Shown here: positions 14,322 to 37,496 of the stretch, in pieces
Layout: each line of letters begins with the position of its first letter
Numbering within the stretch: position 1 is the stretch's first letter
From: Spirochaetia bacterium
GTDB taxonomy: Bacteria; Spirochaetota; Spirochaetia; UBA9216
DNA length: 64,000 nt
Assembly (NCBI GenBank): GCA_963677925.2
Contig: CAXXYH010000003.1
Coordinates: forward strand, 800,001-864,000
Direction: 5' to 3'
Notes under the pieces: generated by a model
Told to the model about the DNA's origin: nothing
What the model saw: only the letters and a program-made list of their open reading frames with translations
Database searches by the model: none
Position numbers and translations under genes: made by a program

Positions 14322-14364
14322 CGGAAATGATTTTATATGAAATATAATATAAGAGGAGGATCTT

Positions 14365-15402: not shown

Positions 15403-15418
15403 TCAGAATTAATTTATA

Positions 15419-15451
15419 GCATCCGTCGGCTCTTCCGACGGATGTTTTTTT
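15419..15451 (+). terminator. Rho-independent terminator after dctP
   Basis: CATCCGTCGG-ctctt-CCGACGGATG followed by T7. Confidence 0.85.
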
Positions 15452-15511
15452 CTTGCAGACTATATAAACCTGTGTTACGGTTAGACAATACATCAAAAAT
15501 GCAGGTTTAAT

Positions 15512-17318
15512 ATGAAAATTTATCCAACTTCAATAATCCACATCACACTATCGATCTTGTTTCTGTTAATTCCATCCACCTATGGTTTTTCCCAGGAAAA
15601 ATCAAGAGTCGCAATTCTTCCATTTGAAGCAAGAGAAGTCTCCCAGTCAGAATCACAGGTAATAACAGAACTTTTTGAAACTGCATTAGTGAAAACAGGT
15701 GTCTATAATATTATCGAACAAAACCAAATTGAAGCCATTGCTGAAGCTCAGGCGTACTCTCTTTCCGGTTGTGTTGACGATTCATGCGCAGTTGAAGTAG
15801 GAAAACTTCTTTCTGCTGAATTGATTGTGATCGGAACCATTTCAAAAGTTGGGAATAAATATATAGCAAATTCCAAGATAATTGATGTTGCCCTGGGAAA
15901 GAATATAAAGGCTGATTCTGTCTCTGCAGATAATCTGGCAGAAATGACTGAAACAAAAATCAGTTTTCTTGCATTTAAACTTGCAGGTCTGACTTATTCT
16001 GAAAATGGAAATGAACAGATAGCCTCTAATTTCGGTGAAATATATGTCGGCACAGACCCACCCGGTGCTGAAGTCTTTGTTAACGGTATGCGTAGAGGAA
16101 CAAGTCCAATGGTGGTAGAGAAAATTCCTTTCGGACAGGTAGTTGTCAATGTAAAGAAAGGGAATATGGTAGCCGAAGGTTCGATCACTATCAATTCCTC
16201 AGATTTAATTGAACTTGATCTAAAATTAGAGGTCGCATTAGGACGTTTGTTTATAAAAAGCAATGATCAAAATCTTATAGTATCACTGGACGAAAGAGAT
16301 CTAGGAGTACTTGGAAGCGGAATATTCCGAGACATAGGCACAGGTGAACACATACTGTCTCTTCGGGGTGAGGGCATGTATTATGAAGAAAGAATCACTA
16401 TAGACGAAGGTAAAAAGGACAACTATTGAGGCATATCCTAGTCCCATAGGTAAAATTTCATATAAACTTCCCGAGGGAGTTCAACTCTCAGTGACAGGAG
16501 GCAGAAACAGTTATAAAAATCTTCAAGGCTCTGGTGAATTAGAAAATGTTTTCACAGGAAGATACAAGCTTAATTTTATCCCTCAGAATGTCTCATTTCC
16601 CGAAGATGAATTACTACTCCTGAAAGGTTCAACATTATCAATTATTCCCGAAGAATATTTCAGGGAGAAAGTTGATAGTATCAACCGAAGCATGAAATCT
16701 CAGGATGACAATTTTTTTAAACTAAACACACAAGCAGCAGAACTGGAGAACGATCTGCATCTGCTTGGTGAAGCAGGAATCAAATACTCAGGAACTGATT
16801 CTATAATCCAGACAATGAAACAGCAATTACAGCTGTATGGGGATATTAAAAGTAAGAGGAATGAATTAAGCGGAATAAATGAACAATTAAGTTCATTAAA
16901 GTCAGAACGTGAAAATATCGAACCTTATTTTAAGAGTGCTAATTTCCAAAAGAATATATATCCATGGATATCAATACCTATCGGCACTGGTTTCCTTGGA
17001 TTAGGTTTTTATACAATAATAGCATCTGCAATAGAAGGATATGATCTTGAGGTTTCAACTATAGTTATTGGAGTAGGAGGTGTCGGTCTGGGAATTACCG
17101 GGCTTGTAACTGGAATTGTATTTGGTGCAGACACATTTGAAGATCCTGGCCCATCTGTTGCATCTGAATACCGTTCTGAAATTATTAAAAAGGGACAAAG
17201 TTTAAATAGATGGCCTGAAATCCAGAATGAAGAACGTGTTCTCACTGAAAAGAAATTTATAGTTGAAAACGAATTAAGCATACTTGAGAATGAATACAAC
17301 ACAGAATATGCGGAGTAG
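15512..17318 (+). pseudogene. CsgG/TolB-N-like + PEGA-domain protein with C-terminal coiled coil and hydrophobic hairpin; one +1 frameshift at ~16412-16418 (real or sequencing error)
   Basis: RVAILPF...CAVEVGKLLSAELIVIG and PEGA motif TDPPGAEVFVNG; removing one base of the A5 run reads EGKRTTIEAYPSPIGKISYKLPEGVQLSVTGGRN into ORF 16491..17318. Confidence 0.7.
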
Positions 17319-17389
17319 CTATAATTTTCTCCTTTGTGCGGGACATTTACTGTATTTTGAAAAGAATCTACGAACAGTAAGATGAAAAT

Positions 17390-18946: not shown

Positions 18947-19555
18947 CTAAAATTCTACTTTCGGAGCAGTTTCTGCACCGCTTGAAGCTTCAAAATACGG
19001 TTTTTCCCTGAAGCCTGAAAGATTGGCAATTATCATCCTGGGGAACTGCTTAATATAAGTGTTATAAGTTCGTACCTGCTCATTGAAACGCTGTCGTTCC
19101 ACTGCTATACGGTTTTCAGTGCCTTCAAGCTGATCCTGCAGTGCCAGAAAGTTCTGATTCGACTTTAATTCAGGATAATTCTCTGTGACAACAAGAAGAC
19201 GCTGGAGAGCCCCGCTTAATTCTCCCTGTGCCTGCTGGAATCTCTCGAATGATTCAGGGTTATTCAGAACTTCGTCGGATATATTCATAACACCCCCGGC
19301 TCTGGATCTGGCCTCGGTAACTGCGGTTAAAGTATCTTTTTCCTGTGCAGCATATCCTTTAACGGTTTCTACAAGATTAGGAATCAGATCAAATCTTCTC
19401 TGATAAACATTTTCAACCTGACTCCAGCTGGATTTTACTCCTTCATCAAGTGCTACCATCCTGTTATAGGTTCCTGCAAATGAACCGTAAATAATAAGGA
19501 CTATAACTACAATAATACCTACCGGGATAAGCCATTTCATGCCCTTTCCTGCCAT
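18947..19555 (-). CDS. lemA: LemA family protein
   Basis: YQRRFDLIPNLVETVKGYA, ENYPELKSNQNF, LEGTENRIAVER. Confidence 0.95.
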   Translation of the reverse strand: MAGKGMKWLIPVGIIVVIVLIIYGSFAGTYNRMVALDEGVKSSWSQVENVYQRRFDLIPNLVETVKGYAAQEKDTLTAVTEARSRAGGVMNISDEVLNNPESFERFQQAQGELSGALQRLLVVTENYPELKSNQNFLALQDQLEGTENRIAVERQRFNEQVRTYNTYIKQFPRMIIANLSGFREKPYFEASSGAETAPKVEF

Positions 19556-19635
19556 TTAAATCTCCTGTAATTTATAAATTATTTTATTTATCAGATTACC
19601 TGATAATACATAGTACAATTAAATACACCGAATAT

Positions 19636-19998
19636 TCACTGCATATTAAGCATAGCGCCGGAAATATAAGGTATAAGCCAGATTATCCAGACAATGATAC
19701 TGAAGCGGTGAAAAGTTTTCTTCATTTTTTCATTTTTTTTGATGATAACAATCGTAGCCCACAAGGCATGAAAAATCATAAGTATTATTGCTATTAAACC
19801 GGTTAAAGCATGCAGATTGAGGCTTATTGCACCGGCAACAGCCGACATAGCTGCAGTTCCGACAGTATCAAAAACAAGCCCGGCCCAGAACATTGAGAGA
19901 TTCCAGACTTTAAGTCCGCCTGACAGTTTTTCACCCCATACTCCGATCGTATAAAAAACCAGGGCCAGTGTTATTGATATAATTGCAGGTATAAGCAA
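19636..19998 (-). CDS. HsmA-family (TIGR03987-like) 4-TM membrane protein
   Basis: ALVFYTIGVWGEK, FWAGLVFDTVGT, two intramembrane His, FHRFSIIVW; TTG start with AGGAG SD. Confidence 0.78.
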   Translation of the reverse strand: MLIPAIISITLALVFYTIGVWGEKLSGGLKVWNLSMFWAGLVFDTVGTAAMSAVAGAISLNLHALTGLIAIILMIFHALWATIVIIKKNEKMKKTFHRFSIIVWIIWLIPYISGAMLNMQ

Positions 19999-20084
19999 AT
20001 CGATACTCCTATTGTATCAATATACCTAGTATATTTTTTATAATCAACAAAAGAGATTTCAATTTATTTTGGACATTTTGTGTA

Positions 20085-20113
20085 TTGCAGTGCAGTGTCC
20101 TAGGTTATATAAT
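20085..20113 (+). promoter_or_regulatory. Sigma70-type promoter of a small non-coding transcript
   Basis: TTGCAG (20085-90)-17 nt-TATAAT (20108-13). Confidence 0.7.
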
Positions 20114-20119
20114 CTTATT

Positions 20120-20192
20120 AAGGAAAATTCTGATTCTCCTCTTTCAGGATTTTTCCGGCTGTTCGGGTGTTACCCGGGCAGCCTTTTTTTTT
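20120..20192 (+). ncRNA. Candidate ~70-nt sRNA: hairpin with anti-SD loop plus intrinsic terminator
   Basis: Stem GGAAAAUUCUGA/UCAGGAUUUUUCC with loop UUCUCCUCUU; terminator GGCUGUUCGGGU-GUU-ACCCGGGCAGCC-U9; no ORF; both neighbours on the opposite strand. Confidence 0.7.
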
Positions 20193-20244
20193 GTCAAATT
20201 CTGCTTTTTAACCTCATTGATTAACAATTATTATATCTGAGTAT

Positions 20245-20275
20245 AAAAAAACCGCCAGCCTATTGGACTGACGGT
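20245..20275 (-). terminator. Terminator of the crotonase-family gene
   Basis: Minus strand ACCGTCAGTC-caata-GGCTGGCGGT then T run. Confidence 0.75.
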
Positions 20276-20297
20276 CTGAATAATCATAAATATGTGA

Positions 20298-21293
20298 TTA
20301 TTTGATAGCGACTTCGAATTCTCCACCGCCGATTTTTGGTCTAACAACCTTACCCTCTTTTTCTGCAGCCAGAACGAGTCTTGCTTCTTCATGCGCATCG
20401 TCCCAGTATTTTGCCTCATGTGGTGAATGGTCAGTTGCAGTAACCCACATTTCAGAAGCAAAGCTGGCTCTAAGTTCATTTGCAATATCTTCCTTCCATG
20501 GCTTCCTGAGAATCTGAGTTGTAATTCTTCTTGTTGTTCTACCTGCAGCATGCATGATAAGTTCAGCAATTTCCCATGCTCTCTTGTATGCAGCATCAAC
20601 ATCTTCACAGATTTCGTTAATCATTCCATATTCAAGAGCCATTTTTGCTGTGATGATCTGACCGGTAAGCTCTGCATAAGCAAATCTCTTTCTTCCCATC
20701 AGCTCTCTCCATGCAATCTGGATACCGTCACCGGGAACCATGTTTGTTCTGAAGTGCATTTCAGTTGTCCATGCATCCTTTGTTGCTAGTGTGATGTCGC
20801 TGAAAAGAACGAGGTCAGTGTGGTAGGAAGCACCAGTCCATACACCTATTGTAGGAACTTCAAGGTCAAAAATCTGACCTTCGATGTCATTTGTTCCATC
20901 GTAGTACTGGTAATCGTACATCTTCCATGATTCTTCAGGTTCAGAACCGTACTCACGACAGGGCATCCACTCGCCGGTTTCCCTGTTGATTCTTCCAATT
21001 CCCTTGAATACGTCAGGTCCGATACCACCGAGGATGATTACCTCATTATCAGGGTCCCGTCCGGCCCAGTCAAAAAAGTAATGAAGGCCCTGATGAAGCT
21101 CGGCACTCCACTGTACAGGTCCGCCATGTGTATGCATTCTTGCTTCAAGGATTCCGTTCTTTCTTGTCATTTTCAGACAATTTTTCAGCTTCTCTGAATA
21201 CTCTTCGAAAGGCATGTGAGGAATTGTATAGAGTTCCTCATGTGGAATTTCTTTTCTTTTGTTCCAATCTGATTCATAATTGGCTTTAATCAT
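20298..21293 (-). CDS. Crotonase-superfamily enzyme resembling 6-oxocamphor hydrolase (beta-diketone hydrolase)
   Basis: PFEEYSEK, HTHGGPVQWS, DPDNEVIILGG, MHF...VPGDG with His/Asp at the OCH catalytic positions (recalled alignment). Confidence 0.75.
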   Translation of the reverse strand: MIKANYESDWNKRKEIPHEELYTIPHMPFEEYSEKLKNCLKMTRKNGILEARMHTHGGPVQWSAELHQGLHYFFDWAGRDPDNEVIILGGIGPDVFKGIGRINRETGEWMPCREYGSEPEESWKMYDYQYYDGTNDIEGQIFDLEVPTIGVWTGASYHTDLVLFSDITLATKDAWTTEMHFRTNMVPGDGIQIAWRELMGRKRFAYAELTGQIITAKMALEYGMINEICEDVDAAYKRAWEIAELIMHAAGRTTRRITTQILRKPWKEDIANELRASFASEMWVTATDHSPHEAKYWDDAHEEARLVLAAEKEGKVVRPKIGGGEFEVAIK

Positions 21294-21553
21294 TTAAATC
21301 ACTCCTTAATACTATATTGCCGCCATCATAGCTTACAAGTAATCGTATTATACATATTCATAACTTTGACGACATGATAAAGAAAATAAATTTTATAACT
21401 ATCCTCATAAGAGGGTGTAGCTTCAAAAATAATTTAGATATAGTCTGTCTAAATGGTTAACTTCACCAATACTATAACAGGTATTCGCGGGTTTATGTGG
21501 TATCAAAATTAACTATTATACTTACAAATTTGTAGATCCGGCTGATTAAAAAT

Positions 21554-31119: not shown

Positions 31120-32142
31120 CTACTGTTCGTATTTTTTTGCTGCTTCAACAGCTATGTTGTAGAGTTCTCTACCGGGCTTGCCGGCAGCTTCAAGCTCTTC
31201 TATCCATCCCTGTTTCATCGGATCTACAATTGAATGGAATTTAGCCATATCTGCGGCAGAGAGCTGATAAACATTCTTACCTTTTTCTTTGGCAAGGCCC
31301 ATTGCATGTGCAACTTCTGCATCGTACTGCTTTCCAATTCTTTCAGGGAAGGTAGCAACTATATCCATAATAACTTTTTTGTCGGCATCTGAAACTTTTG
31401 CCCAGAGGTCTTTATTCGCAAAAAAGATAAATGGTGTTGCATACATGTTAAGCTCTACAATCTGATCGGTAACTTCCATGAGTCTGAATGAAAGCAGCGC
31501 ACTCGGAGCCATTACTGTTCCGTCAACAATGCCTCTATCCATTGCATCATAAAGATCACTTACCGGAAGGCTAACTTCTACTCCGCCTATTTTTTCAATA
31601 ACATCGTTATAGATAGGGCCGGGAGATCTAAGCTTTACACCTTTAAGATCATCAAGGGTTTTAATTTCTTTCTTAAGAAGGAAATGTCCCAGATCGGAAC
31701 CTCCGAACCATAGAAGTTCTGTATCAGTATATTCATATTCACGAAGCATTGGTGTCATTTCAGCTGCAGTCAGGTTTGCCTGAAGAGATGAAGTAAACAT
31801 AAATGGATATTCAAGAATCTGTGACATGGGGAAACGTCCCGGTGTATAAGCAGGAAGTACAAATCCCATTCCCGCTACGCCGCTTACAACAGCATCATAT
31901 GTATCTCCGGGTGCAGCAAGAGCATTTCCGGGATGTACAACTATTTCAACACGGCCCTCAGTCTTTTCTTTAACTTCTGCTGCCATTGGTTCAAGCATAT
32001 TTACATTCAGTGGGTGAACGGCAGGCATAAAATGGTTAAGGTGGAAAACTACATGTCCGCCGCCTTCCTGATCCCCACTTGCATATGCAAATGAAACACT
32101 GATTAATACTGATAAGATAACTAAAAATACTTTCCTTTTCAT
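31120..32142 (-). CDS. dctP: TRAP substrate-binding protein
   Basis: Signal peptide; YTPGRFP, DLKGVKLRSPG, LYDAMDRGIVDG. Confidence 0.92.
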   Translation of the reverse strand: MKRKVFLVILSVLISVSFAYASGDQEGGGHVVFHLNHFMPAVHPLNVNMLEPMAAEVKEKTEGRVEIVVHPGNALAAPGDTYDAVVSGVAGMGFVLPAYTPGRFPMSQILEYPFMFTSSLQANLTAAEMTPMLREYEYTDTELLWFGGSDLGHFLLKKEIKTLDDLKGVKLRSPGPIYNDVIEKIGGVEVSLPVSDLYDAMDRGIVDGTVMAPSALLSFRLMEVTDQIVELNMYATPFIFFANKDLWAKVSDADKKVIMDIVATFPERIGKQYDAEVAHAMGLAKEKGKNVYQLSAADMAKFHSIVDPMKQGWIEELEAAGKPGRELYNIAVEAAKKYEQ

Positions 32143-32375
32143 AACAATCCTCCTATAAAATTCCTTACTTTTTTTTTCTGTCTGTTTTAAATGTGTTTAC
32201 ACCAGCCTCCTTCCCCCGTTATTTTGGATGAACTGGTCCGGCCAATATTAGTAATCGATTGACTGCATAAAAGAATGAGAAAAGCATAGGAGTAGATCGA
32301 GATGAAGAACAAAGAAGAAAGGCCGGTGCGTAAAAACTTGTTAGCGTAAAATTCAAGTATCAATCAAAATTTAAC

Positions 32376-36509: not shown

Positions 36510-37496
36510 ATGATTGCGGAAATTCTTGGCTTAGGTGCTTATGTACCCGAAAAAGCAATTACCAACGAAGAACTTTCTAAGACTGTCGATACCACTGACG
36601 AATGGATTAGATCACATACCGGAATAGGTAAAAGACATATCATTGCAGAAGATGAGACAACTTCTGATACAGCTGTAAAGGCTGCAAAGATAGCAATTGA
36701 ACGTGCAGGAATAGATGTACAGGAGATAGATTTTATTATACTTGCAACAGCGTCAGGTGATTATGCGGGATTTCCTTCAACAGCCTGTGTTGTACAGCAC
36801 AAACTTGGAATCAGAAATACTGCGGCTGTAGATATTGGTGCAGGCTGTACCGGTTTTGTTTACGGACTTGAAATGGGACGCAGTCTGCTTCTTGCCGGCG
36901 GAGCCAAAAGGGTGCTGGTTATCGGCGTCGAATCACTTTCAAGAATTGTAAACTGGAAAGATCGTAATACATGCGTACTGTTCGGAGACGGTGCAGGAGC
37001 TGCTGTTCTAGGGCTGAGTGAAGATGATAACGGAAGCGGAATAATTGATTCCTTTCTGGGCGCAGAAGGCGACGGATTTGAACACCTTATGAGGAAGGCC
37101 GGCGGAGCCAAGCACCCGTTTCACATCGGTGAGTACGAAGAAGAAGATCTCTATGTCAGCATGAACGGCCGCAGGGTTTACGGTTTTGCTGTTAAGGTTA
37201 ATGAGACCATTATCAATTCACTTCTTAAAAACAATAATCTTTCTGTAGACGATGTCAGCAGAATTGTCCCTCATCAGGCAAATATAAGAATTATTCAGGC
37301 CGCTGCGAAGAGACTTGAACTTCCTGAGGAAAAGTTTTTCATCAACATCGAAGAATATGCCAACACTTCAGCAGCCTCAATACCAATCGCGCTTAATGAT
37401 ATGCTTTCAAAAGGACAGCTCAAGAAGGGTGACCTTATAATTACTACAGGATTCGGTGCAGGCCTTACCTACGGCGGCAACCTGATACGCTGGTAA
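36510..37496 (+). CDS. fabH: 3-oxoacyl-ACP synthase III
   Basis: AGCTGF (Cys), PHQAN (His), ANTSAASIP (Asn), GFGAGLT. Confidence 0.96.
   Translation: MIAEILGLGAYVPEKAITNEELSKTVDTTDEWIRSHTGIGKRHIIAEDETTSDTAVKAAKIAIERAGIDVQEIDFIILATASGDYAGFPSTACVVQHKLGIRNTAAVDIGAGCTGFVYGLEMGRSLLLAGGAKRVLVIGVESLSRIVNWKDRNTCVLFGDGAGAAVLGLSEDDNGSGIIDSFLGAEGDGFEHLMRKAGGAKHPFHIGEYEEEDLYVSMNGRRVYGFAVKVNETIINSLLKNNNLSVDDVSRIVPHQANIRIIQAAAKRLELPEEKFFINIEEYANTSAASIPIALNDMLSKGQLKKGDLIITTGFGAGLTYGGNLIRW

Follow-up and report, generated by a model that had tools for sequence, protein, structure and literature searches.

A candidate anti-Shine-Dalgarno small RNA beside hsmA in a Spirochaetia bacterium

The intergenic unit and its neighbours

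The window analysed here is a stretch of 64,000 nucleotides from a Spirochaetia bacterium (assembly GCA_963677925.2, contig CAXXYH010000003.1, positions 800,001 to 864,000), and positions given without a contig name are counted from its first letter. On its plus strand, at 20085-20192, it holds a compact unit that lies in the intergenic region between the minus-strand hsmA gene and a minus-strand crotonase-like gene. The elements of the locus are listed below, where the congener is the same-genus genome in which the unit was also matched.

19636-19998, minus strand: gene of an HsmA-family membrane protein (TIGR03987, 163.7 bits), the first of a lemA-TPM gene string
20085-20090, plus strand: -35-like hexamer TTGCAG, agreeing with TTGACA at 3 of 6 positions; same in the congener
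20108-20113, plus strand: perfect -10 hexamer TATAAT, after a 17-nt spacer following TTGCAG; same in the congener
20120-20192, plus strand: predicted transcript of about 73 nt, its unmapped start placed from the position of the -10 hexamer
20122-20155, plus strand: hairpin 1, a 12-bp A/U-rich stem with two G-U pairs, from the fold computation
20134-20143, plus strand: 10-nt loop UUCUCCUCUU, complementary to Shine-Dalgarno (SD) sequences of the GAGGAG type; same in the congener
20157-20183, plus strand: intrinsic terminator stem-loop of 12 pairs (8 of them G-C) with a 3-nt loop, from the terminator scan and the fold
20184-20192, plus strand: U9 tract, U7 in the congener
20249-20277, minus strand: terminator of the crotonase-like gene, from the terminator scan
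20298-21293, minus strand: gene of a crotonase-superfamily protein, the right neighbour

Several of these elements had been described in an earlier reading made from the letters without database searches (hereafter the sequence-only reading). The promoter hexamers with their 17-nt spacing, the 12-bp terminator stem with its U9 (20157-20192) and the minus-strand orientation of both flanking genes, the upstream one having a terminator of its own at 20277-20249 on the minus strand, are found as they were described there. The 12-bp stem and the 10-nt loop are likewise present; the single bulge reported for the stem appears in the centroid structure, whereas the MFE structure has no bulge and contains two G-U pairs. 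About 8 nt lie between TATAAT and the start of hairpin 1 (20122), a single nucleotide separates hairpin 1 from the terminator stem, and there is one CU-rich unpaired stretch. Since the crotonase-like gene has its own terminator, the plus-strand unit is not the 3' end of that gene, and, both neighbours being encoded on the minus strand, the plus-strand terminator serves no gene. The anatomy of an independent small-RNA gene is present, in agreement with the stand-alone unit proposed earlier, and the compactness of the arrangement, in which a perfect -10 hexamer, a hairpin and a terminator follow one another without spare sequence, counts for such a gene. The unit is single-copy, a search for paralogues in its own genome having returned none, and its interpretation as a small RNA is plausible from these features.

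Two further observations concern the surroundings of the unit. The promoter spacer (20087-20105, plus strand) carries a direct repeat, TGCAG-TGCAG, and a palindrome, CCTAGG, both the same in the congener, which could form an operator. The crotonase-like protein (20298-21293, minus strand) has paralogues of 69-71% identity and a weak Pfam match to ECH_1 (34 bits); it is 93% and 85% identical to copies from another genus, the corresponding values for the neighbouring HsmA being 59% and 55%, and these identities suggest either an unusual constraint on this protein or a recent exchange of its gene.

Chance expectation and conservation

An explanation that dispenses with an RNA regulator takes the plus-strand terminator as an insulator or a relic by which stray transcription, antisense or divergent, arising in the AT-rich promoter region of hsmA is brought to a halt, with the TATAAT, the hairpin and the CU loop arising by chance in DNA of 32% G+C. 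This is, in our estimate, unlikely, if the least unlikely of the alternatives considered. The 82-nt unit folds at -33.8 kcal/mol (z -6.49), an energy equalled by none of 200 shuffles, and most of this signal is carried by the terminator, which alone gives -22.1 kcal/mol (z -5.91). Hairpin 1 alone reaches -11.7 kcal/mol, equalled by 4 of 200 shuffles, and its z of -1.84 favours the insulator, as do two properties of the promoter: promoter-like sites in the region are no commoner than in shuffled sequence (9 observed, 7.2 +/- 2.2 in shuffles), and the -35 hexamer agrees with the consensus at only 3 of 6 positions, which is also why the unit's promoter is absent from the promoter-scan list. Against the insulator, the perfect -10 hexamer is placed to start an RNA at the foot of hairpin 1. 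With both strands counted, the 385,586 intergenic bases contain 1154 perfect copies of TATAAT, or 0.0015 per nt per strand, which gives a chance of about 1.5% for a given 10-nt slot and of about 0.5% if a TT-type -35 is included.

The terminator at 20157-20192 is a textbook intrinsic terminator, with a 12-bp stem, 8 G-C pairs and U9; it differs from ordinary ones in having no co-directional upstream gene and in the second hairpin and -10 box packed directly in front of it. The lack of a plus-strand gene for it to serve argues against an insulator. Under a strict definition of the terminator, 87 strong intergenic terminators were counted genome-wide, of which 16, the unit's included, are orphans, with no co-directional gene within 250 nt. 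Of the remaining 15 orphans, 5 form the ends of known RNAs (tRNAs and an FMN riboswitch), and so orphan terminators often mark real transcripts; the other 10 are unexplained, and their likewise lacking a known RNA is counted for the insulator. An orphan terminator is a fair sign of an RNA gene, yet an unsafe one. The ten strong orphans with no Rfam family upstream, which could mark small RNAs or missed short genes, lie as follows.

Contig C3: 397563-397596 (plus strand), 1394061-1394102 (plus strand), 2080160-2080195 (minus strand)
Contig C4, plus strand: 36757-36789, 1685852-1685897, 2160051-2160083, 2570484-2570526
Contig C4, minus strand: 1916842-1916890, 591812-591852, 420440-420480

A genome scan for a CU-loop hairpin of at least 7 bp followed by a terminator returned 13 matches, 4 of them outside coding sequence, and the longest stem among the 13 is that of the unit (12 bp, the others having 7-8). 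A family of such units within the genome was considered and rejected, the match inspected on contig C4 being the 3' end of a plus-strand gene. That element (C4:1658636-1658722, plus strand), at the 3' end of a 450-aa gene, has a 7-bp hairpin whose loop is CCCCUCCA, together with a strong terminator and a linker rich in C and U; it could be an RNA derived from the 3' UTR that carries a motif resembling an anti-SD sequence.

In a DNA search of 41 genomes, the unit's own and 40 relatives, the unit was matched in the congener (G001) only; two further matches, of 23-35 nt, fall inside the terminator. Over 108 nt the congener's copy differs by two substitutions and the shortening of T9 to T7. Promoter, loop and terminator are unchanged, and the sole stem change, from U to C, turns a G-U pair into G-C, an improved pairing that argues against a relic. 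The unit is 96.3% identical between the two genomes, compared with 89.6% for the coding and 89.3% for the intergenic sequence of the window. As proof of function this conservation was set aside as weak, since 18.8% of 1046 intergenic 108-nt segments (and 12.7% of all segments) are at least as conserved, and both this unexceptional value and the confinement of the unit to two close species favour the insulator. Within its own intergenic region, however, the unit has changed less than the flanking sequence, which carries 17 substitutions in 191 nt where the unit carries 2 in 99 nt (Fisher p 0.025), and this counts against the insulator.

With a covariance model of the unit, based on its own and the congener's copy, the hits in the nine other genomes of the family, which is here the whole order (11 genomes), and in the other 141 of the 151 class genomes searched were bare terminators only, at no more than 35.3 bits; a filter-free covariance search of the syntenic loci gave no score above 18.1 bits. 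The two flanking genes are on separate contigs in the next genus, where neither the crotonase-like gene nor hsmA has such a unit in its flanks. An exact 18-mer scan of public genomes produced 46 stretches, one of which is a true match, namely the congener itself (L176); in the corresponding metagenome scan the unit was absent among at least 119 stretches, mostly one coding sequence of a gut bacterium, and contigs from public sequencing runs of the DNA type yielded the congener-like variant again and no new relative. Of the 4 public sequencing runs listed for the locus, none was an RNA run. The conservation of loop and stems in relatives to which the sequence-only reading had looked is absent beyond the genus in the covariance, DNA and synteny searches, and this counts against that reading as it was put forward.

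Candidate targets and known small-RNA families

The 16S tail of the host reads GGATCACCTCCTTTC, and the genome uses the SD sequence heavily, with a median pairing to this tail of -6.9 kcal/mol. The loop UUCUCCUCUU has a computed opening energy of 0.0 kcal/mol and is fully accessible, so that the unit exposes an accessible motif complementary to the host SD; the loop core CUCCUC is exactly complementary to GAGGAG, which occurs in 135 of 4391 initiation regions. These regions come from gene calls made for this analysis (hexamer log-odds with an SD-weighted start choice), which gave 4395 starts, 4391 of them with usable initiation regions; the start choice favours SD-rich starts, and the set of competitors is therefore larger, not smaller. 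Each region, from -30 to +15, was scored against hairpin 1 by hybridisation plus the opening energy of the small RNA. CsrA is encoded in the genome, and Hfq (PF17209) gave no match in this 99.6% complete genome, the control giving a match in 5 of 14 known genomes; an atypical Hfq may have escaped. Two ribosome-binding sites (RBSs) in the window had been put forward as targets.

14351-14362, plus strand: RBS of dctP, AAGAGGAGGATC, 2 nt before ATG; one possible target among many
32147-32154, minus strand: RBS of a second dctP-family gene (31120-32142), AGGAGGAT; predicted pairing weak

The first belongs to dctP, the last gene of the dctQ-dctM-dctP operon. The 12-bp match on which the proposal was based exists as written, GAUUCUCCUCUU pairing with AAGAGGAGGAUC at 14351-14362 with one G-U. 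This pairing uses two bases of the stem, at an opening cost of 5.0 kcal/mol; extension from 10 to 12 bp therefore adds nothing, and dctP is predicted to pair best through the 10 bp of the loop, at -13.8 kcal/mol. In the genome-wide ranking dctP stands at 37 of 4391 by hybridisation and small-RNA opening and at 62 of 4391 when target accessibility is included. For the second gene the site at 32154-32147 on the minus strand was correctly located, but its pairing is weak, and the gene ranks 911 and then 473 of 4391 under the same two scores.

Long matches of this kind are common in the genome: at least 12 contiguous pairs are available in 39 of the 4391 regions, the longest match having 17. In controls that keep CUCCUC and shuffle its flanks, 22 +/- 10 regions reach at least 12 bp, 13 of 200 controls being as high as the 39 observed, and the excess over these controls is marginal. 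Target scores track plain SD strength (Spearman 0.69). The 18 DctP-family genes outscore other genes (p 0.0012), their SD sites are also stronger (p 0.0006), and once SD strength is regressed out the bias has p 0.058; it is mainly through their strong SD sites that these 18 genes score well. By hybridisation and small-RNA opening dctP is the best of the 63 genes of the window, and a reader of the window alone would thus be led to it, the chance of finding one gene of the top 0.8% among 63 being by arithmetic about 4 in 10. Specificity for dctP was rejected on its ranks, on the 39 regions with long matches and on the SD-strength bias, and the claim that the RNA is aimed at the TRAP dctP RBS finds no support in the same ranking; the unit is an in-silico candidate, and the transporter-target account of it does not hold.

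The 20 best predicted targets are functionally mixed and form no coherent regulon, which favours the insulator; they include a dehydrogenase E1 component (PF00676), CheA, TatD, a FliI-like ATPase, an epimerase and MsrAB, together with permeases, two binding proteins, TetR, P-II and others, and functional coherence among them was rejected for this mixture. The longest match, of 17 contiguous pairs, belongs to a 986-aa PPDK_N/receiver-domain protein (C3:308942-311902, minus strand), which ranks first when accessibility is included; it may be a chance match among 4391 regions. Directly after dctP, the stretch 15404-17345 is alone in the window in having no alignment to the congener. Apparently a variable island, it contains a gene for a PEGA/CsgG-like protein (15512-16429) and a 275-aa gene (16491-17318) with no Pfam match.

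The sequence-only reading had called the RNA undescribed, and in this it agrees with a scan of 19000-21500 against Rfam 15, in which 8 matches at E <= 10 were obtained, none near its gathering threshold. The best rows on the plus strand of the unit are U7 (19.9 bits, gathering 34) and suhB/mmgR (16.2 bits, gathering 41), and, judged by its sequence, the unit belongs to no described family. Among the papers listed by a full-text literature search for small RNAs and anti-Shine-Dalgarno motifs in spirochaetes, none appears to describe such an RNA.

Three families invite comparison. MmgR/SuhB RNAs (RF00519) consist of a hairpin with a CU-rich loop followed by a terminator, and theirs is the only bacterial small-RNA family with a faint plus-strand alignment to the unit, at 20131-20198. 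The family is alphaproteobacterial, and the score of 16.2 bits against a gathering threshold of 41 (E 4.3) means that the unit is not a member. In RsaE/RoxS (RF01820) and other Firmicutes small RNAs with C-rich motifs, unpaired pyrimidine-rich motifs, which contain runs of three or four C and occur at least twice, pair with SD regions and Hfq is not needed; the unit, by contrast, has no Rfam match to them, and its loop, present in a single copy, lacks CCC, its C runs being of two at most.

The third comparison is with AbcR1/2 (alpha-r15) of the Rhizobiales. According to two studies, these RNAs repress the translation of many transporter mRNAs, notably those of periplasmic binding proteins, and compete at ribosome-binding sites through an anti-SD motif, aSD1, in the 5'-hairpin loop (PMC4152367, PMC8844928), the aSD1 of S. 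meliloti AbcR being given as CUCCUCCC (PMC8844928). They are described as having three hairpins, a second single-stranded aSD module and an association with Hfq (PMC4152367). The unit resembles them in carrying an anti-SD loop, with the core CUCCUC, in a 5' hairpin. It has, however, no sequence or structure homology to AbcR1/2, no such family appears among its Rfam matches, and it has one anti-SD module where AbcR1/2 have two, in the loop of hairpin 1 and in the linker between hairpins 1 and 2. The unit also consists of one hairpin and a terminator instead of three hairpins, its genome has no Hfq gene that was found, whereas AbcR1/2 are Hfq-associated, and its targets are known here from prediction, those of AbcR1/2 having been validated experimentally.

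Possible roles of the unit

The reading that we favour, tentatively and at slightly less than an even chance, is that the unit encodes a young, genus-specific, Hfq-independent non-coding small RNA of about 70 nt that acts by an anti-Shine-Dalgarno loop and has many weak candidate targets. Transcription would start about 7 nt after TATAAT, pass the 5' hairpin and end at the intrinsic terminator, a strong one that would also serve as the 3' stabiliser of the predicted RNA. In the cell, hairpin 1 would present the unpaired CU-rich loop UUCUCCUCUU to SD sequences of the GAGGAG type, and the pairing would put the loop in competition with the 30S subunit at the regions where translation is initiated. 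Since no Hfq gene was found, the RNA would act without Hfq. Its effect on translation would be that of a brake, broad and of low specificity, on mRNAs whose RBSs are strong and rich in purines, not that of a dedicated dctP repressor. A bolder form of this proposal, which we consider rather unlikely, is that free-living Spirochaetia have in this unit their first anti-Shine-Dalgarno riboregulator, a 70-nt RNA of very recent origin, confined to the genus and independent of Hfq, that arose beside the hsmA promoter; its single open loop would damp GAGGAG-type RBSs such as internal operon sites (dctP in dctQMP) and those of P-II and the PPDK-like response regulator. Such an RNA would illustrate how little is needed for a brake on translation with global reach.

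It is also conceivable, at a clearly lower probability, that the RNA is made and works in another mode, by binding a protein that recognises pyrimidines or structure, or by pairing within coding sequences or at 3' ends, its likeness to an anti-SD RNA being incidental. The anatomy of the unit suits this mode as well as the favoured one, the list of targets at initiation regions is unspecific, a loop of 10 nt is necessarily strained if it forms 10 bp, and AbcR1 is reported to bind some mRNAs deep within their coding regions (PMC4152367). Opposed to this are the loop core CUCCUC, which complements a common SD variant present as GAGGAG in so many initiation regions, and the fact that no protein partner can be named. 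The target scan covered initiation regions.

Improbable too is a function of the minus strand, on which the hsmA-lemA-TPM operon would have a long 5' leader; alternatively, the plus-strand RNA would be the cis-antisense partner of that leader. Such a leader would start at a CTGGCG-17-TATAAT-like site near 20225-20253 and would expose the SD-like loop AAGAGGAGAA as a decoy for CsrA or the ribosome. The minus strand does have a second perfect TATAAT, located upstream of the unit, and the GGA motif in the minus-strand loop, together with the CsrA of this genome, is in line with such a decoy. The minus-strand copy of hairpin 1, however, shows no significant fold (z -0.69, equalled by 50 of 200 shuffles), because its G-U pairs turn into mismatches on that strand, one of them being an A-C mismatch in both species, and the two G-U pairs thereby give hairpin 1 its strand specificity. 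Promoter-like sites also lie nearer to hsmA, at 20062-20033 and 20047-20019, and the G+C-rich hairpin, which on the minus strand is preceded by A9 and followed by no U-run, has no role there. A small protein is very improbable: the claim that the unit holds no ORF needs amending in that two 51-aa ORFs starting with TTG (20069-20224 and 20085-20240), listed mechanically, span it, but neither has an SD upstream, both pass through the strong terminator and the U9 tract, and the 2-nt difference in the T-run of the congener puts both out of frame.

The favoured reading, that of a young anti-Shine-Dalgarno small RNA, touches on a field in which small-RNA regulation in spirochaetes beyond Borrelia and Leptospira is almost unexplored. 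If confirmed, a one-hairpin anti-SD RNA in a spirochaete lacking Hfq would extend a convergent theme of regulation to one more lineage, and the unit would be an unusually simple model of anti-SD regulation.
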